Of a stretch of DNA of 64,000 bases, positions 54,502 to 62,681 are shown one piece after another (the stretch's first letter is position 1; every line of letters begins with the position of its first letter). Source of the stretch: an uncultured Gemmatimonadales bacterium (GTDB taxonomy: Bacteria > Gemmatimonadota > Gemmatimonadetes > Gemmatimonadales > GWC2-71-9); the NCBI GenBank assembly GCA_963828735.1, contig CAWHFW010000002.1:576001-640000 (forward strand), read 5' to 3'. The translations under genes were made by a program, and so were the position numbers. A model generated the notes under the pieces. It had not been told where the DNA came from. It searched no databases and worked only from the letters and a program-made list of their open reading frames with translations.

Positions 54502-56010
54502 TCAGGTCCCGGTCCGAACCACCTCGATCGAGCCATCCCGGTTGTCCCGCACCTCCCATCCCGCCGCCTTGAGCAGTCCTCGGATCCGATCCGCCTCCGG
54601 AAAGTTCTTGCCCGTCTTGGCTTCCTTCCGCCGAACTGCCCACCGGATGGCCCACGACCGTTGCGTTTCCTCGCCCCGCTCTGCCGGAGGGCTCTCGCGG
54701 AGCTCCCCGTCTCCGGCTCCCGCGTCGACCGCCGATCCGACCTTGACCGACTGCACGCCCGACGTGACGGCGAGCACGCCCTCCGCCCGACGCCATGCGG
54801 CAAGCCCGCGGGGACCCGCCGATTCGCCCGAGTCTAGCGCGGCGTTGCCGGCCTTCGCGAAGTCGAAGACCGCGGCGACCGCGCGCGGGGCGTTCAGGTC
54901 GTCGTCCAGCGCCTCGGTCAGCTCGCGCTCGAGCCGCGTGGCGGCCTCGCCCAGGAGCGGGCCATCGGTAGACCCGGTCGCGGCGAAGAGCCGATTCTGG
55001 AACTCACCCAGTCGGCGCGAGCCCTCGCGCGCGCTCGCGAGCGCCTCGTCGGTCAGGTCGAGCTGCTTCCGGTAGTGCACCTGGAACATCAGCAGCCGGA
55101 CCGCGCCGGGATCCACCCCGTCCTCCCGGAGATCGCGCGCCGTCGTGATGTTGCCGAACCGCTTGGACATCTTGGTCCCGCGAATGTTGAGGAACTCGCC
55201 GTGGAGCCACACCCGGGCAAACGCGTCGCGCCCGGTGAATGCGCAGCTCTGGGCGATCTCATCCTCGTGATGCGGAAAGATCAGGTCCACGCCCCCGGCG
55301 TGGATGTCGAGCACGTCCGTACCGAGGCGCCGGCGAATCAGCTCGAGCGCCATCGCCGAGCACTCGATGTGCCAGCCCGGCCGCCCGCGGCCGAACGGCG
55401 CATCCCAGGCGGCCCCGACCGCCTCGTCTTCCGGCTTCGCCGCCTTCCACAGCACGAAGTCGCGCGCGTCCTCCTTGCTGTACTCGTCGGCGCTCACGCG
55501 CTCGCTGGCGCCCGCGCGGAGCTCGCGCCGGTCGAGCTGCGACAGTCGGCCATAGGCGGGAAACCGCGCGATCGCGAAGTACACCGAGCCGTCCTCGCCG
55601 AGGTATGCCACGCCCCGATCCAGGAGGCCCTGGATGAGCTCGATCATGGGACCGATGTACTCCGTGGCCCGCGGTTGCTCGGTGGCCGGCTTGATCCTGA
55701 GCCAGTCGCGGTCCTCCTCGAACGCGCGCGCGAACGGATCCACGTGCGCGCGAAGGGACACGCCCTTTTCATGGGCGGCGGCGATCGTCCGATCGTCCAC
55801 GTCCGTCAGGTTCATGATGTGGAGCACGTCGTAGCCGCTCGCCTCGAGCCAGCGACGGAGGAGGTCCTCGAAGAGAAACGTTCGGAAGTTGCCGATGTGG
55901 GCGTAGTTGTAGATCGTCGGCCCGCAGGTGTACAACGAGACGCGCCCCGGCTGCAGGGGCACGAAGGGTTCGACGCGGCGGGTGAGCGTGTTGTGGAGAC
56001 GGAGGGTCAT
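54502..56010 (-). CDS. cysS: Cysteinyl-tRNA synthetase
   Basis: CGPT, HIGN, PGWHIECSAM, DLIFPHHE and KMSKR motifs. Confidence 0.98.
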   Translation of the reverse strand: MTLRLHNTLTRRVEPFVPLQPGRVSLYTCGPTIYNYAHIGNFRTFLFEDLLRRWLEASGYDVLHIMNLTDVDDRTIAAAHEKGVSLRAHVDPFARAFEEDRDWLRIKPATEQPRATEYIGPMIELIQGLLDRGVAYLGEDGSVYFAIARFPAYGRLSQLDRRELRAGASERVSADEYSKEDARDFVLWKAAKPEDEAVGAAWDAPFGRGRPGWHIECSAMALELIRRRLGTDVLDIHAGGVDLIFPHHEDEIAQSCAFTGRDAFARVWLHGEFLNIRGTKMSKRFGNITTARDLREDGVDPGAVRLLMFQVHYRKQLDLTDEALASAREGSRRLGEFQNRLFAATGSTDGPLLGEAATRLERELTEALDDDLNAPRAVAAVFDFAKAGNAALDSGESAGPRGLAAWRRAEGVLAVTSGVQSVKVGSAVDAGAGDGELRESPPAERGEETQRSWAIRWAVRRKEAKTGKNFPEADRIRGLLKAAGWEVRDNRDGSIEVVRTGT

Positions 56011-56954
56011 CCGCTCGCGGCCCCGGCGGCGGCCTGGGCGACCGGATCGGTGTCCGGCCCGCCCTGGATGCGCACGTGCACGCGGCGCTGCGGGAACGGA
56101 ATCTCGAGGCTCTCGCGATCGAACCGGTTCTTGATGCGCCGGCGGAACTCACGCGCCACGGCCCACTGGGACCCGGGCTGCGTGCGGATCATGGTGCGAA
56201 GGACGACGGCGCTCTCGCCGAGCGATTCGACGCCCAGCACCTCCACCGGCCCGTCGAGCTGCCCGCCCCAGGTCTTGTCGGTGGAGAACTGGGCCGCCTC
56301 GTCGCGCAGCACGTCGATGGCGCGGTCCACGTTCTCGTCGTACGGGACGCCCACGTCCACCACCGCGCGCGACCACCCGCGCGTCTTGTTGCTCACCACC
56401 TTGATCTCGCCGTTGGGCACCACGTGCATGACACCTTCGCCATCGCGAAGCTGGACCACGCGCAGCGACATCTTCTCGACCACGCCGGTCTTTCCGGCGA
56501 TCTCGATCACGTCCCCGATGGCGAACTGGTTCTCGAACAGGATGAAGAAGCCGCTGATGACGTCCTTCACCAGGCTCTGCGAGCCGAACGACACCGCGAG
56601 GCCGAGGATGCCGGCGCCTGCCAGGATCGGCCCGATGTCGATGAACACGTTGAAGGTGAGCAGGGTGGCGATCGCCACGATGGCTACCCGCCCCAAGCTG
56701 CGGAGCAGCTGGGCGACCGTCTGGCCGCGCCGCTCGCGCAGGGTCGTGACGGAATCGTCCCCGTCGTCCACGGCGATCTCGATGCGGCGTGCCGCCAGCC
56801 GCACCACCCGGTAGGCCAGCCACGCGAGGAGCCAGATGCCGAGTACCCGCAGGCCCGACCGGACCAGCTCTTCGCCATCGATGCGAAGGATGGCGGCGAG
56901 TCGGCGGATGATGTCACCGAAACTGAAGAGCGGAACGAGGTTGAGTGCGAGCAT
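56007..56954 (-). CDS. Small-conductance mechanosensitive channel (MscS family, YbiO-like)
   Basis: AGILGLAVSFGSQSLVKDVISGFFILFENQFAIGD. Confidence 0.92.
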   Translation of the reverse strand: MLALNLVPLFSFGDIIRRLAAILRIDGEELVRSGLRVLGIWLLAWLAYRVVRLAARRIEIAVDDGDDSVTTLRERRGQTVAQLLRSLGRVAIVAIATLLTFNVFIDIGPILAGAGILGLAVSFGSQSLVKDVISGFFILFENQFAIGDVIEIAGKTGVVEKMSLRVVQLRDGEGVMHVVPNGEIKVVSNKTRGWSRAVVDVGVPYDENVDRAIDVLRDEAAQFSTDKTWGGQLDGPVEVLGVESLGESAVVLRTMIRTQPGSQWAVAREFRRRIKNRFDRESLEIPFPQRRVHVRIQGGPDTDPVAQAAAGAASG

Positions 56955-56978
56955 AAGCCTGAATCGTGGGCGAGCCCT

Positions 56979-57008
56979 AACCTACGGACGCGCCCGGGCG
57001 GCCGTCAA
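56979..57008 (-). promoter_or_regulatory. Probable sigma70 promoter for mscS-cysS
   Basis: TTGACG-N18-TAGGTT. Confidence 0.55.
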
Positions 57009-57460
57009 CCTGAGCGGGCGCCGCCATAGTCGATCCAGGTGGCCGCGACCGGCACCCGTGCGGCCGCACACGCGGCGAGCGCCGGCTCGGCGCCGTCCAG
57101 CCCCAAGGGCAACGCGATGCGGCCGTTATCCACGCGGAGCCCGGGATAAAGCGCCCGGAGCTCCCGGACAGCCGGGAGAAACGGGGCGCCAACCACGATC
57201 TGCAGCGTCCGCCAGGCAATCAGTCGCTCGGCGTCGAGGGCGACGGCGCCATGGCTGTCGCGAACAACTACTCGCCCGCAGCGGCGGAGCAGGAAACCCA
57301 GATCCGAGCTGGCCAGGAGGGCGCGTCCGCGCGCGCGCAGGTGAAGAGGCCACCGGCCCATGCGCACCCAGGCGCCCAGAGGTTCCCCGGGGTGGGCAAA
57401 GGCCAGCGCGCGGCGGAGCAGGAAGGAGGAGGGGAGGCGGGAAGGGGCGCCGGGGAGCAT
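57005..57460 (-). CDS. Hypothetical protein
   Basis: Fills the gap co-directionally. No recognisable motif. Confidence 0.35.
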   Translation of the reverse strand: MLPGAPSRLPSSFLLRRALAFAHPGEPLGAWVRMGRWPLHLRARGRALLASSDLGFLLRRCGRVVVRDSHGAVALDAERLIAWRTLQIVVGAPFLPAVRELRALYPGLRVDNGRIALPLGLDGAEPALAACAAARVPVAATWIDYGGARSG

Positions 57461-57538: not shown

Positions 57539-58621
57539 TCACCGTGCGATGCTGACCCGCTCCTGTTCGTGACGGTCCCGAGCGCTCACGACCGCCTCCA
57601 CGAGTGGAGTGGGATCGAACCGCACGGGGTCGGTCGCCGGCAGCCCTGTTTCCCGCGCGGCGGCCTCGCAGGCGCGGCGGGCCTCCGTGTCGGTCAAGTC
57701 GTAGGTGTTGAGCGAGATGGCGATGACCTTCGTCGGATGGACCGCCCCGCCGATGCTCTCGTACACCCGGATGTAATCAGTGAGCGGCGGGATGCGGAGC
57801 CATGCCGCCTTGCGGTAGTCGCCGATGTACTCCCGGCTCGACTGGTGACACAGGATGAGCGCGTCGGGGCACGAGCCGTGGAGCAGGCCAAGGGTGACGC
57901 CGGAGTACCCCGGATGGTTGATGCTCCCCTGCCCTTCCACCAGCACGACGTCGGCATCCTTGGCCCCCTCGAGCACGAGCCGCTCGGCCGCGCCGGCGAT
58001 GAAATCCGCGACCACCGCGTCCACCGCGATGCCCCAGCCTTCGATCATGATGCCGGTCTGACCGGTGGCGACGAAGCGCGTGCGCACGCCGCGTTCATTG
58101 AGCTGACGGGTGATCTGCAGCTGCGCGGTCATCTTGCCGACGTTGCAGTCGGTCCCGACCGTGAGGACCACCAGCGGATCCACCGACTTCGCCAGCCCCG
58201 AGGCGATCGGCAGGTCGGGCGGCGGGCGGCGGAGATCCAGGATCTTCCGTCCCCTGGTCCCCGCCTTCTCGGCGAGCAGTGGATCGTCGCCGAGAAAGGT
58301 GTGGAGACCGCTCCAGAGATCGCAGCCGTGATCGAGCGCCTCGGCCAGCCACGCGCGCCATTCCGGCGGCATCCGCCCGCCCTGGGGCGCGATGCCGATC
58401 AGGATCGCGGTCGGGCCGAGCGCGAGTCCCTCGCGCATGGAGGCGACGATCGGGATCTTGCCGCCAAAGCCCAGGACGTCCTGCACGGTCTTCCCGGCCT
58501 GTTGTCGGTCGAGCACGCCCACCGTGCGGTCTGGGAGATAACGGATCACCGAGTTGGCCGTTTTGGACGTCATGGCCGAGAAGTCGCCGTCGGCGACGAT
58601 CAGGAAGCGCGGAGCAGTCAT
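57539..58621 (-). CDS. DUF1611 family P-loop protein (DgcN-like)
   Basis: KTANSVIRY, SGLH, VGTDCNVGKMT, ATGQTGI and VEGQGS motifs. Confidence 0.88.
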   Translation of the reverse strand: MTAPRFLIVADGDFSAMTSKTANSVIRYLPDRTVGVLDRQQAGKTVQDVLGFGGKIPIVASMREGLALGPTAILIGIAPQGGRMPPEWRAWLAEALDHGCDLWSGLHTFLGDDPLLAEKAGTRGRKILDLRRPPPDLPIASGLAKSVDPLVVLTVGTDCNVGKMTAQLQITRQLNERGVRTRFVATGQTGIMIEGWGIAVDAVVADFIAGAAERLVLEGAKDADVVLVEGQGSINHPGYSGVTLGLLHGSCPDALILCHQSSREYIGDYRKAAWLRIPPLTDYIRVYESIGGAVHPTKVIAISLNTYDLTDTEARRACEAAARETGLPATDPVRFDPTPLVEAVVSARDRHEQERVSIAR

Positions 58622-58625
58622 CCGG

Positions 58626-59753
58626 TCAGGTGTGCGAAGGTTGGACGGAAGGCTCGGCCGTGGCTGGCACGGTTCCGGAGGGCGCGACCGCCACGACCGG
58701 ATCGCCGTAGACCTCGCCGAGCAGGATATGGCGGACCAGGGCCATCACCAGCACCATGATCGGCACGGAGATGATGAGGCCCGCCAGCCCGAACAGCTTG
58801 CCGATCAGCAGCACGCCGGCGATGGTCACCACGGGCGGCAGGTTGACCTGCCGCTCCATGACCACCGGCGACACGATGTTGGCCTCGATGAGGTGCACGA
58901 CGACGCCCAGCGCCGCCACCAGGAGGGCCTTGGTCAGGCCGAACGCGCCAAGCGCGAAGAGGGCCGGCACCACGGTCGAAAACAGGACGCCGAAGAACGG
59001 CACGATGGCGGCCACGCCGGCGAATACGCCGAACGCCAGGAAGTACGGCATGCCGAGGGTCCAGAGTCCGAGCGTCGTGAGGGCCGCCAGCAGCACCATC
59101 GCGATGATCTGGCCCACCACCCAGGCCCGGATCGTACCGTTGACGTCGGCGAGGATCGCGCGGGCCAGCGCTCGGCGGCGCGGCGGGACCAGCGCGACGA
59201 CACCGTTGATATAGATCGCCGGGTGTCGCGCGAGGAAGATCGCCATCACGATCACGCTGACGCCCTCGATCAGCACCTCGACCCCGCCCTTCAGATACGG
59301 TACCGCCGCCCCCCGCAGAAATCCGAGGATCTCGCCGAGCGCCGAGGCCACCAACCCCGGCTGGGTTTCCCCGCCGGGCGTGGCCTCCCGCCGGAGCACG
59401 GGGATGCTCCGCATCAGGGCAGTGATATTGGCATCGAGCCTGCTGAGATACTGCGGGAGATTGCTGAGCAGGTCCTGGACCTGCGCGGTCACCGGCGGCG
59501 CGATGAGGAGCACCGTCCCCACCAGGACGCCCAAGGTCCCTACGACGCCGAGCGAGAGCCCGAGCGGCCGGGGTATGCCAAGGCGCCGATCGAGCAGATC
59601 GGTCACCGCATCCAGGTAGATGGCCAGGATGGCCGACAGGAACAGCACGAGCAGGATGTCGACCGTGCGGACGACCAGGGCCACCAACGCGACGGCCAGC
59701 AGGACCCGCCCGATAGGCAGGCCCCGCCGGCCGTCAAAGGTCGTCTCCGCCAT
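58626..59753 (-). CDS. AI-2E family transporter
   Basis: Multi-TM topology, IVPFFG and EANIVSPVVM...VNLPP motifs. Confidence 0.88.
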   Translation of the reverse strand: MAETTFDGRRGLPIGRVLLAVALVALVVRTVDILLVLFLSAILAIYLDAVTDLLDRRLGIPRPLGLSLGVVGTLGVLVGTVLLIAPPVTAQVQDLLSNLPQYLSRLDANITALMRSIPVLRREATPGGETQPGLVASALGEILGFLRGAAVPYLKGGVEVLIEGVSVIVMAIFLARHPAIYINGVVALVPPRRRALARAILADVNGTIRAWVVGQIIAMVLLAALTTLGLWTLGMPYFLAFGVFAGVAAIVPFFGVLFSTVVPALFALGAFGLTKALLVAALGVVVHLIEANIVSPVVMERQVNLPPVVTIAGVLLIGKLFGLAGLIISVPIMVLVMALVRHILLGEVYGDPVVAVAPSGTVPATAEPSVQPSHT

Positions 59754-60526
59754 CAGCGGGTAGACCCCTCATCCCCCTCTTCCACGAGCTCGGCGTCGTG
59801 GACGTCGTTGTTGCCCTTGTTGAGCTGCCGGGTCGGCTGCGCCTGCCCGGGGCCGACGAGGCCCATGCGCTGCTTCAGCTCGATGAGCTGCTGGTCAGAG
59901 CTGCCCTTGTACTCGAGCGCCTCGAACTGTTTGGCGAGCCGGTCGCCGGAGACCTCCTCGTTGAGCTCCGCCGCGGCGAGCGCCTTGCGCTCGTGGGCTT
60001 CGATCTTCTCCGCCATCCGCTCGAACGACTCGAACGCGCTCTTGTCGGACATGCCCGACATCGTCTCCTGGATCCGCTGCTGCGCCTCCGCGCGCTTGGC
60101 GCGCGCCACCAGGATGTTCTTCTTGCGCTTGGCCTCCTCGATCTTGTCGTTGAGCTGGCGCAGCGAGAGCTTGAGCGCGTCGGTCTCCGCCTTGTGCCGG
60201 AGCCACGTCTCGTGGAGCTGCTGCGCGCCCTGCATCTGCTCGTTGTACCGGCCGAGAGCCTGCTTGGCCATGTCGTCCCGCCCCTCCTGCACGGCGAGCA
60301 TCGCCCGGCGCTCCCAGTCCTCCGCCTGCTTCTTCATGTTCTCAGCGTCGCCCTGCAGCTTCTTCTCGTCGGCGATCGCCGAGGCCACCTGCTGTTTGGC
60401 CTTGGCGAGGTTGGTCTTCATGTCGACGATGAGCTGGTTGAGCATCTTCTCCGGGTTCTCGGCCCGCGAGATCAGGTCGTTGATGTTCGACCGGAGCAGG
60501 GTCGAGAGACGGTCAAAGAGTCCCAT
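59753..60526 (-). CDS. pspA: PspA/IM30 (bacterial ESCRT-III) family protein
   Basis: MGLFDRLSTLLRSNINDLISRAENPEKMLNQ...WERRAMLA...FERMAEKI. Confidence 0.95.
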   Translation of the reverse strand: MGLFDRLSTLLRSNINDLISRAENPEKMLNQLIVDMKTNLAKAKQQVASAIADEKKLQGDAENMKKQAEDWERRAMLAVQEGRDDMAKQALGRYNEQMQGAQQLHETWLRHKAETDALKLSLRQLNDKIEEAKRKKNILVARAKRAEAQQRIQETMSGMSDKSAFESFERMAEKIEAHERKALAAAELNEEVSGDRLAKQFEALEYKGSSDQQLIELKQRMGLVGPGQAQPTRQLNKGNNDVHDAELVEEGDEGSTR

Positions 60527-60532
60527 GTCGCT

Positions 60533-60928
60533 TCACCTTTCCCGGTACGGAGCGAGCGCGGTCAGGTGCGAGGCCACCGCCAGCGTGATCGAGTCGAAGC
60601 TCGCCTCGAACTCGCTGAAGTCGAGGTCTTCCAGCTCGAGCGTGTCGGTCAGGACGACGTGGTCGCCCTCGAGACCGTAGGAGCCGTGCACCAGATCCCG
60701 GGCGTTGTACTCCAGCAGCTGGCGGAACAGCTCGCTGCGCCGGGGCTCGCTGGCCGGGAGCTCCATCACTCGCACCCGCATGATCACGACCGGGGGCGCG
60801 AAGTGCACCACCACCTCGGCGTCGTCCGGCGTCCGGGCGAGCCAGAGGTTCGGCTCGATCTCCATGACCGTCAGGCCGCCGCCGTCGAGCCGGTCCAGGA
60901 ACGACTGGATGTCCTCGCGGGTGATCAT
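60533..60928 (-). CDS. YbjN/CesT-like chaperone-fold protein
   Basis: ATG at 60928 (ATGA overlap). LFRQLLEYNA..LVHGSYGLEGDHVVLTDTLELEDLDFSEF motif. Confidence 0.75.
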   Translation of the reverse strand: MITREDIQSFLDRLDGGGLTVMEIEPNLWLARTPDDAEVVVHFAPPVVIMRVRVMELPASEPRRSELFRQLLEYNARDLVHGSYGLEGDHVVLTDTLELEDLDFSEFEASFDSITLAVASHLTALAPYRER

Positions 60929-61176
60929 CGGTGCGTTCCCCCCGGCAGCTGGTCGGCCTCGCGCACCTGAGCCAGGAGACGCTCGGCGAAATCTAACCGT
61001 TCCTCGACGTCGGCCAATCGGCCGCGGAGATGGTCCATCTCGGCGGCGAGAGCCGGGTCGCCGTCGGGCGCGCCGCCACGGATTCGCGCCGCGAGCGCGT
61101 CGCCCAGCGGCCCGCGAAAGATCTTGACGAGGCCCGCCATCAAGACCACGGCGATGATCACGTTCTCCAGCTGCAT
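60925..61176 (-). CDS. PspB-like small membrane protein, paralog 5
   Basis: TM helix + GPLGDALAARI + EERLDFAERLL. Confidence 0.8.
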   Translation of the reverse strand: MQLENVIIAVVLMAGLVKIFRGPLGDALAARIRGGAPDGDPALAAEMDHLRGRLADVEERLDFAERLLAQVREADQLPGGTHR

Positions 61177-61185
61177 CGGTCCCCC

Positions 61186-61518
61186 TTACCGTTGAAGCCG
61201 ATCCGGCTCCCGTGCCTGCGCCAGCATCCGCTCGGCGAACTCGAGCCGCTCCTCGACCTCGGCCAGCCGGCCGGACGCCTGCTCGAGCTGGTCCACCCGA
61301 TTCCGGAGCCCTTCTACCTCGGCCTGCAGCTCGACGCCGGCGGCGCCTCCCTCGAGGCGGCGAGCCAGGGCGCGGATCAGCGGCCACACGATCAGCAGCA
61401 GCGTCGCGAGCACGGCGACCGTGATGGCCACCGCGGCCGGGTCGCTCAGCGAGCCGGCGACCGACATGTGACCGCCCGGGTCGGGCGGCACCGGAATCTG
61501 CTGGGCGAGGACGGTCAC
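61186..61518 (-). CDS. PspB-like small membrane protein, paralog 4
   Basis: GTG at 61518 (GTGA overlap). TM helix + WPLIRALARRL + EERLEFAERML. Confidence 0.8.
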   Translation of the reverse strand: MTVLAQQIPVPPDPGGHMSVAGSLSDPAAVAITVAVLATLLLIVWPLIRALARRLEGGAAGVELQAEVEGLRNRVDQLEQASGRLAEVEERLEFAERMLAQAREPDRLQR

Positions 61519-61874
61519 GTCGTTCCCCGTGGCAAGGTCGCCTGGTTTTCCCCACGCGCGAGCAGGCGCTCGGCGAAGTCGAGCCGCTCCTCGAGCTCCG
61601 TGACGCGCTGGTGGAGCGCGTCCACCTCGCCGAGGCGATGGTGCATCTGATCCAGCTCTCCCTGCAGCGCCGGCGTCATGACCGACTTGCCCTCGAGCCG
61701 CCGCGCCAGCGCGCGGGCGATCGGCCAGCACACGATCGTCACGGCAGCCACCACCAGCAGCACGACCATCACGATGCCAGGCGAGCTCAACTGCGTCAGC
61801 AGAAGGTTCGGGTCCACCGGAATGCTAGGTACCGGCGGCGGTACTGGTGGCACCGCCTGCATCGGGCTCATCAC
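61515..61874 (-). CDS. PspB-like small membrane protein, paralog 3
   Basis: Pro-rich N-terminus, TM helix + WPIARALARRL + EERLDFAERLL. Confidence 0.8.
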   Translation of the reverse strand: MMSPMQAVPPVPPPVPSIPVDPNLLLTQLSSPGIVMVVLLVVAAVTIVCWPIARALARRLEGKSVMTPALQGELDQMHHRLGEVDALHQRVTELEERLDFAERLLARGENQATLPRGTT

Positions 61875-62128
61875 GCATCCCCCTGTCTGAGCTGCCCGGC
61901 CTTGCGTTCCTGCAGTAATACGCGCTCGGCGAAGTCGAGCCGCTCCTCGAGCTCCCCCAGGCGCCCCTGCAAGTCGGCGAGCTGCTGGTCGTCGTGATCG
62001 GTTCGCGGCTGCCCGGCTCCGCCGATCCTGCGGGCGATGGCCTCACCGAGCGGACCACGGAACACGCGCGCGATGGTCCAGGCGGCAATCGAGCCGATCA
62101 CGATGGCGAAGACCTGATCCGGGCTCAC
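61871..62128 (-). CDS. PspB-like small membrane protein, paralog 2
   Basis: TM helix + GPLGEAIARRI + EERLDFAERVL. Confidence 0.8.
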   Translation of the reverse strand: MSPDQVFAIVIGSIAAWTIARVFRGPLGEAIARRIGGAGQPRTDHDDQQLADLQGRLGELEERLDFAERVLLQERKAGQLRQGDA

Positions 62129-62379
62129 TCGCCGGCGCCCACCTTGCCCTGCTCCTGTCGTTGGGCGAGCAGCCGCTCGGCGAAGTCCACCCGCTCGTGC
62201 AGCTCGGCCACCTCGTGGCGAAGCGCGTCCACATCGGCCAGCAGCTCGGGGTCCTGCGCCGCCTGTTGCTGGCCCCGGATCCGCTCGGCGAGGGCCCTCC
62301 CGACGGGGCTGATCGACAGGAGGAACAGCGTACCGCCGCCGAAGATGAACGTGATCGCCAGTACGCCTTCCATATCCAT
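62125..62379 (-). CDS. PspB-like small membrane protein, paralog 1
   Basis: TM helix + SPVGRALAERI + HERVDFAERLL. AAGGA RBS. Confidence 0.8.
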   Translation of the reverse strand: MDMEGVLAITFIFGGGTLFLLSISPVGRALAERIRGQQQAAQDPELLADVDALRHEVAELHERVDFAERLLAQRQEQGKVGAGE

Positions 62380-62408: not shown

Positions 62409-62435
62409 TACGACCCTAGGCTGGCCAATGTTTCA
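62409..62435 (-). promoter_or_regulatory. ECF-sigma-type promoter of the psp operon
   Basis: TGAAAC-N17-CGTA, about 30 nt upstream of the first ATG. Confidence 0.6.
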
Positions 62436-62465
62436 AGGCGCAACACGGGCGATGCGTGGACGACG

Positions 62466-62681
62466 TCAAACCAGCTCGACCGCCTCGATGGCGGCCAGGG
62501 AGACGGCGATTTCGGTATCGTCGCTGCCGGCCGGGCGGAGATAGACCTCGTGGGCGGTGATGTGGGTATCCACGCTCATCGGAATGCCCACGACTTCGGT
62601 GCGATCCGTAGTCGTGATGCGCACGGCCTGCTCGTGCCCACCGGCGTACCCGAGGAGCTGGACGATGTCTTCGTAGGTCAT
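62466..62681 (-). CDS. Small hypothetical protein with an Sm/LSm-like pattern
   Basis: 71 aa: an N-terminal helix followed by VRITTTDRTEVVG...VYL...IAVSLAAIEAVEL. Confidence 0.6.
   Translation of the reverse strand: MTYEDIVQLLGYAGGHEQAVRITTTDRTEVVGIPMSVDTHITAHEVYLRPAGSDDTEIAVSLAAIEAVELV

Follow-up and report, generated by a model that had tools for sequence, protein, structure and literature searches.

The window analysed here is a stretch of 64,000 nucleotides (nt) of contig CAWHFW010000002.1 from an uncultured Gemmatimonadales bacterium (assembly GCA_963828735.1, here G000). Its minus strand carries, at 62379-60925, an array of five open reading frames (ORFs) encoding proteins of 84, 85, 119, 110 and 83 amino acids (aa), termed paralogs 1 to 5 (P1 to P5), which are followed by a CesT/Tir-like gene and by pspA, the single PspA/IM30 gene detected in the source genome (Table 1). 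Close to its N-terminus, every paralog carries a single hydrophobic 19-mer, whose mean hydropathy is 1.7-2.9; no Lys or Arg comes ahead of it, and two to four are among the next 15 residues. In all five, the membrane segment is followed by P-x3-A-(L/I)-A-x-R-(L/I) and by a coil ending in ER(L/V)(D/E)FAER. The ORFs, hydropathy and motifs thereby confirm the original prediction, made from the letters of the window, of five tandem 83-119 aa paralogs combining a single transmembrane helix, a shared motif and a coiled-coil tail. The genes are also, as predicted, mostly coupled by GTGA or ATGA overlaps: the junctions P1-P2, P2-P3 and P3-P4 are GTGA overlaps, P4 and P5 are separated by 9 nt, P5 and the CesT-like gene share an ATGA overlap, and 6 nt lie between the latter and pspA. 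Profile matches bear out the downstream order given there, namely CesT-like gene, pspA, AI-2E transporter and DUF1611.

Pairwise DNA identity among the paralogs is just 56-61%, and they are therefore old duplicates and no assembly repeat. In all 25 comparisons of the five paralogs with five relatives, the nonsynonymous rate (dN) is lower than the synonymous rate (dS), indicating purifying selection, with dN/dS values of 0.05-0.3 for P1. A recent repeat or assembly artefact was rejected on these two grounds; the five paralogs are real, old genes. AlphaFold2 models P1 (148-row alignment) with helices at residues 3-23, 25-38 and 44-81 and a mean predicted local distance difference test score of 90.7.

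Table 1. Features of the locus and related genes of the source genome (positions in the window, or in G000 where so marked)
Feature	Position	Strand
Inverted half-site, imperfect (GTTTC/GTTGC, 5 nt ahead of GAAAC), directly adjoining the -35 element	62436..62446	-
SigW-type ECF promoter-like site TGAAAC-N17-CGTA, ~30 nt before the first paralog	62409..62435	-
Paralog 1 (P1), 84 aa, slowest-evolving type, FGGG motif within the membrane helix	62125..62379	-
Paralog 2 (P2), 85 aa, clusters with relatives' second-position genes (tree)	61871..62128	-
Paralog 3 (P3), 119 aa, WP type, Pro-rich N-terminal extension, longer coil	61515..61874	-
Paralog 4 (P4), 110 aa counted from overlapping GTG, WP type	61186..61518	-
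Paralog 5 (P5), 83 aa, stop overlaps start of CesT-like gene	60925..61176	-
CesT/Tir-like chaperone-fold gene, 131 aa; PF22550 CesT_Tir_1 E 1.4e-24, 87 bits vs cut-off 27	60533..60928	-
pspA, 257 aa; PspA_IM30 PF04012 E 5e-47	59753..60526	-
AI-2E family transporter; PF01594 E 3e-50; start overlaps pspA stop	58626..59753	-
DUF1611 protein resembling DgcN (below cut-off), 4 nt past the AI-2E transporter gene	57539..58621	-
TM2-domain protein with family tail	G000:C2:53200-53607 (L019:3201-3608)	-
Divergent member between bshC and murJ	G000:C1:150396-150671 (L021:3397-3672)	-
Stand-alone 77-aa PspC-domain gene, no coil tail, other contig, unlinked to pspA	G000:C5:2211992-2212222 (L115:1483-1713)	+

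The tail pattern R-x-(D/E)-F-x-E occurs in 377 of 383 array members. With the heptad register set by the Leu/Val pattern, the outward positions are occupied by E-4 (90%), E-1 (97%), D+2 (95%) and R+6 (100%), R, F and the second E being fixed by the anchor pattern itself, and the core positions vary among aliphatics. The constancy of this outer stripe and its exposed Phe suggest a surface to which a single conserved partner binds. The tail is retained on TM2 fusions, on two-helix anchors and on a 240-aa domain. A second motif, R-h-x-x-h-E, is found in its strict form in paralogs 2-5 and, with Ala in fifth position, in every paralog; it is described in the available text as often tied to parallel trimeric coils and also present in dimers and tetramers (PMC5381506). 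Structure comparisons with the P1 model returned no match in Foldseek and generic long helices only in VIA-align (Z ≤ 5.9 at a root-mean-square deviation of ~7-8), and a sequence search of solved structures gave nothing below E 0.15.

Promoter and putative SigW-like regulon

The site TGAAAC-N17-CGTA ahead of P1 resembles promoters of extracytoplasmic function (ECF) sigma factors and is the sole match in the window, where 0.01 would be expected. It precedes 15 of 15 arrays in close relatives and, including a TGACAC variant seen in arrays without the CesT-like gene, 63 of 76 arrays in the wider sample, compared with 2 of 868 background windows; it is also found at 15 of 24 pspA loci from other families. 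Of 63 array promoters, 41 retain four or more of the five letters of the inverted half-site next to the -35 element. In Bacillus subtilis, pspA is SigW-controlled. TGAAAC and CGTA form the SigW consensus of this organism (PMC5758882).

The source genome carries the same motif between an ECF sigma gene and its anti-sigma gene. This sigma gene has SigW as its best NCBIfam model (E 8e-46), at 156 of 209 bits and hence below the equivalog cut-off, and a SigW-like sigma gene is present in 58 of 61 genomes of the class. At 27 of the 30 loci, the motif comes after the sigma gene, between it and the anti-sigma gene, and at five it comes before; in many genomes the TGA stop of the sigma gene is the start of the anti-sigma gene's TGAAAC-N17-CGTA promoter. 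The source locus (L024, G000:C5:902837-906200) encodes the SigW-like sigma, an anti-sigma with HxxxCxxC, a membrane protein of 428 aa with no family assignment and a LiaF-C (Toastrack) protein. Further strict sites at G000:C2:889952 (-), C2:421612 (+) and C5:891218 (+) mark candidate members of the same regulon, the genes after them encoding a two-helix membrane protein of 71 aa, an efflux-like protein of the outer membrane and a product that is uncharacterised.

The genome thus combines a TGAAAC-N16/17-CGTA promoter with a SigW-like sigma and a zinc-binding anti-sigma, as in a SigW-type regulon, and we infer that this sigma would drive the array-pspA unit. PspF/sigma-54 control was not found, the array having an ECF-type promoter instead; of 15 sigma-54 activators in the source genome none passes as PspF (best 287 bits, cut-off 443.55). 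Metatranscriptome contigs (4 of 24 listed runs) span a 9-kb stretch of the locus thinly and evenly and are uninformative on expression or transcript ends.

Association with pspA and members elsewhere

Linkage was followed in 80 array loci chosen by their likeness to paralog 1, a sample that favours pspA-linked arrays. Of these, 78 are labelled Gemmatimonadota and one has no label; the remaining one, L039, is a short contig (1946 nt) from a Chloroflexota bin, which shows the same layout and is likely a binning error. The closest named relatives are Gemmatimonadales metagenome-assembled genomes. In all 62 loci with at least 1200 nt beyond the last copy, pspA follows the array, whose copy number ranges from 1 to 13, and the CesT-like gene is present in 44. 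PspA, rather than CesT, is therefore the constant neighbour, and CesT as an obligatory partner was rejected given its absence from 18 of the 62 arrays. All 15 same-genus arrays begin with the paralog-1 type and include the WP type, and four of five complete two-gene arrays consist of exactly these two. In a quick tree of 102 of the 388 sequences, which rests on few columns and leaves many forks unresolved, the window paralogs each cluster with genes from other genomes rather than with their own neighbours. The two subtypes originally distinguished (GPLG/SPVG in P1, P2 and P5; WP in P3 and P4) are both visible, but the tree splits the family further into P1, the WP type, P2 and P5.

A less biased sample consists of the pspA loci of 24 genomes from other families. 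Here, one locus holds an array, five have one divergent member placed after the promoter and before the CesT-like gene, and 18 hold none (12 in genome family f2, one in f4, five in f7). With a sixth single-member locus found in addition, the order promoter, member, CesT, pspA is seen in six genomes, which belong to three other families. The array profile scores three of the five singles at E<1e-4 and two at just 0.06-0.16, and a joint profile of the singles, which includes one source-genome copy, matches the array profile at 98.3%. The finding of a single member or none in other families implies a CesT-pspA core, with the array as an expandable insert ahead of it.

On the far side of pspA, the AI-2E transporter gene, likely co-transcribed with it, follows in many relatives. 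The tight gene run goes on at 54502-57460 (-) with an unknown gene of 151 aa and with mscS and cysS, the last also standing a short distance after pspA in several relatives. Directly upstream of the promoter, and outside the promoter-defined unit, a 71-aa gene (62466-62681, -) without Pfam or NCBIfam match keeps its position in 15 of 15 close relatives and is found near many wider arrays; its pattern of a helix followed by strands is reminiscent of an Sm-like fold.

Outside the array, the source genome has nine additional members on four contigs, 14 in total. All nine keep the tail on differing anchors, including single helices, a two-helix anchor and a TM2-domain fusion. In the source's family, 37 of 42 genomes have a single full-length match to the latter, a single-sequence model of which reached a predicted local distance difference test score of 57 and was set aside; its tail is present at all 30 loci inspected, and an ECF motif lies within 260 nt at none. 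It is a candidate constitutive PspC-like partner. Among longer fused forms (26 matches), most are single-sequence records resembling read-through or frameshift artefacts and were set aside; just the type with a 240-aa domain and a helix before the same tail recurs, in several metagenome proteins. The member between bshC and murJ is conserved in many Gemmatimonadales records. Longimicrobium terrae, a cultured representative of the class, also has a recorded family member. Another member (L022, G000:C3:158831-161440) comes after an ECF-type promoter, a TPR lipoprotein and a PadR regulator, PadR being a recurring Psp-associated regulator in the available text of one survey (PMC11237479). Two dispersed copies, L016 and L018, share an upstream sigma-70-like site (TTGCxC, 17 nt, TAGxTT) with near-identical spacers, which suggests housekeeping expression and a common origin.

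The family comprises 2406 clusters at 50% identity (E ≤ 0.001), some of them possibly generic coils, and profile searches of its members found no Pfam or NCBIfam model that names it. Genome family f1 has 4-20 matches per genome. In f2, 24 of 26 genomes carry an own subfamily with the tail ERISEGQRF (2-10 matches each, often tandem), for which pspA lies within 1.5 kb at 0 of 30 loci and an ECF motif upstream at 8 of 30, against a single locus of the 30 on the opposite strand. The order promoter, histidine kinase, three or four copies is found in two f2 genomes (L216:4638-7841 in G124; L217:2546-5750 in G115). The original prediction had counted frequent separation from pspA as evidence against itself, and this applies in part: all 62 arrays are linked, whereas 9 of the 14 source-genome copies and the 30 f2 loci are not. 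An invariable position next to pspA was rejected on account of these copies and loci and of the memberless pspA loci.

Presence and absence run in parallel. In 151 genomes of the phylum, the family profile matches 130 and PspA 132; both occur in 128, neither in 17, the family alone in two and PspA alone in four, so that 145 of 151 are concordant. None of the results depends on genome G157, which is unpublished. The more sensitive divergent-member profile finds members in three of the four PspA-only genomes. In genome families f9 and f13, PspA is absent from 15 of 15 genomes, which yield three borderline family matches (E 5e-4 to 1e-3), and 13 of the 15 keep the SigW-like sigma. The proposal of a lineage-specific envelope-stress system around pspA is well supported by the linkage, the SigW-type promoter and this joint presence and absence.

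Likeness to PspB and other known systems

The paralogs were originally called PspB-like. Like PspB (PF06667, TIGR02976), they have an N-terminal membrane helix, a short linker and a cytoplasmic coil with R-h-x-x-h-E, and their genes lie beside pspA; hydropathy, charge bias and the AlphaFold2 model agree on an N-terminal membrane anchor with an alpha-helical cytoplasmic domain. The Pro-to-Arg spacing is 37-38 in the short paralogs and 37 in Escherichia coli PspB. P1 aligns collinearly and at full length with TIGR02976 (residues 11-75 to model 5-69; E 1.4e-4), at 22.1 bits against a cut-off of 51.7. This model is the most-matched one: at E ≤ 0.01 it is found for 24 of the 148 members, the lowest E being 1.1e-6, compared with 1 of 148 for Pfam PspB (PF06667) at the same threshold. 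The generic models GspM (16/148) and CcmI (8/148) match too, so much of the TIGR02976 signal is generic. In 121 phylum genomes no protein exceeds the TIGR02976 cut-off, and six of the eight best matches are family members. Hhalign gave 13% and 25% against a single E. coli PspB and 6% against PspC, the PspB sequences sampled being nearly all enterobacterial. In reverse, the family profile misses pspB in E. coli K-12 (six candidates scored; direct score 3-8 bits). In the Atlas, the nearest annotated clusters of two different members are PspB, with scores of 0.80 and 0.79 that, being below 0.9, count as leads.

In a MAFFT alignment, the tail falls on RERIQALESIL of PspB and ETRLREMERYV of PspC, and the near-invariant L71 on E. 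coli PspC V105, a residue reported in the accessible text to be necessary for PspC-PspA binding (PMC6003685). Both E. coli tails contain R-h-x-x-h-E, and convergence is therefore possible. The predicted likeness to PspB thus holds for architecture and for a weak TIGR02976 signal, with no member near the cut-off and an hhalign probability of 13%. The family is therefore not assigned to PspB, but it plausibly works like the PspB and PspC tails.

The family has its own signature, D-F-x-E-R-L-L, and scores far under the PspB cut-offs. Compared with enterobacterial pspFABC, in which PspB is single and downstream, it comes in 1-13 copies upstream of pspA, and the array has an ECF-type rather than a sigma-54 promoter and neither a linked pspC nor PspF. 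PspC models match none of the genes of the unit, which is thus no pspABC operon. The absence of pspC and pspF noted originally therefore holds for the unit, and no PspF passes genome-wide, but the genome does hold an unlinked PspC-domain gene (Table 1), which lacks a SigW-type promoter. The available text of one survey calls the PspC tail a divergent PspB and describes PspB duplicates and a PspC protein fused to a divergent PspB, which the TM2 fusion parallels (PMC11237479). The CesT/Tir-PspA dyad of the same source has a CesT_Tir_1 gene directly before pspA, as here, where the pair forms a class-wide core; its reported contexts (band-7/flotillin, spermine-synthase-like, ATP-grasp) are absent, the neighbours being the array, the AI-2E transporter, DUF1611 and MscS (PMC11237479). 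LiaI of B. subtilis is a small membrane protein co-induced with the PspA homolog LiaH and, in the text available, reported to recruit it into foci (PMC7619361). Unlike the multicopy array, whose unit includes no two-component genes, LiaI is single-copy and under LiaRS two-component control, and LiaI models gave no match among profile searches of unit genes and members. The SigW regulon of B. subtilis (sigW-rsiW; pspA-ydjGHI) resembles the present one in its TGAAAC / CGTA consensus and in a SigW-like sigma with an HxxxCxxC anti-sigma gene, and differs in its partner genes and in the sigma's score below the SigW equivalog cut-off.

Arrays of small membrane coils are not among the dyad contexts in the text and one supplement of PMC11237479, where 'Gemmatimon' does not occur, although the web tables of that work may list such loci; nor is Gemmatimonadota mentioned in the available part of Popp et al. 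2022 (PMC9239133). Literature searches for Gemmatimonas with PspA or phage shock, for Gemmatimonadota PspB and for TM2 domains with PspA or envelope stress found nothing, and two papers returned for gemmatimonad ESCRT-III appear unrelated from their listings. The array is apparently an undescribed variant of the Psp system.

Proposed function and rival explanations

The reading favoured here, at a probability of roughly 55%, is that the paralogs are membrane adaptors whose tail recruits PspA, an ESCRT-III-like protein, to the stressed membrane in the manner of PspBC or LiaI. In its favour are the constant linkage to pspA, with single members in the same slot in other families, the shared promoter, still seen at 8 of 30 f2 loci, the joint presence and absence with PspA, the conserved tail kept on varied anchors, and the placing of L71 on PspC V105. 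In the Bacillus SigW/RsiW model, stress releases the sigma from its anti-sigma. By analogy, envelope stress would free the SigW-like ECF sigma from its zinc-binding anti-sigma, and the sigma would transcribe array, CesT-like gene and pspA as a single coupled message, as promoter and gene overlaps suggest. The paralogs are predicted from their charge bias to insert with the N-terminus out and the C-terminus in, and would bundle via their coils, probably as mixed oligomers given the tandem R-h-x-x-h-E motifs. The outer stripe E-x-x-E-R-x-D-F-x-E-R-L-L may then dock PspA, and the varied membrane helices, N-terminal extensions and fused domains may set each adaptor's place or trigger. It is more tentatively suggested, with a likelihood well short of even, that the ~30-residue tail is a portable PspA-docking tag on many anchors, with up to ~20 adaptors, expanded independently in at least two families.

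Several observations weigh against recruitment of PspA by the paralogs. In 18 of the 24 other-family pspA loci no member stands between promoter and CesT, which makes an in-operon partner dispensable, and the 80-locus sample behind the linkage count was ranked by likeness to paralog 1 and favours linked arrays. Nine of the 14 source-genome copies are unlinked to pspA; none of these shows a GAAAC-type motif within 200 nt upstream, although a one-letter variant precedes one of them, and the TM2 fusion is without an ECF motif at all 30 loci. Two f2 arrays adjoin a histidine kinase (with a response regulator next in G115) instead of pspA. G022 (95% complete) has a member, the one between bshC and murJ, and no pspA was found in it, and G041 has PspA and no member. 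The co-occurrence count is inflated by kinship, with about five independent absences, three of them in small genomes. Finally, the alignment with PspC and PspB has little statistical strength, and hhalign sets its register one heptad earlier.

Some of these points would also fit an explanation that we regard as rather unlikely, in which the proteins are co-induced protective effectors of the SigW-like regulon that act independently of PspA, for instance by binding misfolded membrane proteins or pore-forming ones that are mislocalised. The tail would then serve as a self-assembly or protease/chaperone tag, and the position before pspA would reflect the shared promoter alone. Copies and entire arrays away from pspA agree with this, as does the rapid turnover of copies, with 1-13 in an array and 4-20 matches in an f1 genome, which fits diversification towards many targets, and Yersinia PspBC are described in the accessible part of one source as protecting against secretins without PspA (PMC9239133). 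It is opposed by the joint absence of family and PspA from lineages that retain the sigma, and by the occupation of the slot between promoter and CesT-pspA in five families. A role as signalling modulators, inhibiting or activating a membrane kinase, anti-sigma factor or regulator and thereby tuning the stress regulon, is the least probable of the alternatives: it would suit the arrays behind promoter and histidine kinase gene in two f2 genomes and the source-genome copy after a PadR gene, but no kinase or regulator occurs at the pspA-linked loci inspected gene by gene, and many diverged copies are hard to reconcile with a single regulatory target.

Standing between these two in likelihood, and itself improbable, is the view that the paralogs are divergent true PspB orthologs, pairing with an unlinked PspC-domain protein or the TM2 fusion as a PspBC sensor whose partner binds PspA. 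The collinear full-length TIGR02976 alignment of P1, the family members among the best TIGR02976 matches of the phylum (6/8), the PspB clusters nearest in the Atlas and the PspB duplicates and PspC-divergent PspB fusions described in the available text of PMC11237479 would all fit. Against these stand the 0 of 121 genomes over the cut-off and the matches to generic GspM and CcmI models, the hhalign value of 13% and Atlas scores that are leads alone, as well as a 77-aa PspC-domain gene that is unlinked and has neither coil tail nor such a promoter, and the lack of PspF.

The targeting of bacterial ESCRT-III proteins (PspA/Vipp1) to damaged membrane is known for few partners, namely the PspC tail and LiaI. 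Against this background, the family offers a natural series, with one PspA per genome and 0, 1 or up to 13 partners in the operon and up to ~20 per genome, all of which carry one short, conserved, mutable tail. The work also outlines a SigW-like envelope-stress regulon, with promoter, sigma, anti-sigma and targets, for a common and little-studied soil phylum. If the tail does not bind PspA, a large unnamed family would still have been described. If it does, a recruiting motif would be defined and adaptor multiplication shown in bacteria, and a repertoire of docking tags, if real, would parallel in bacteria the numerous eukaryotic proteins that recruit ESCRT-III to specific sites.

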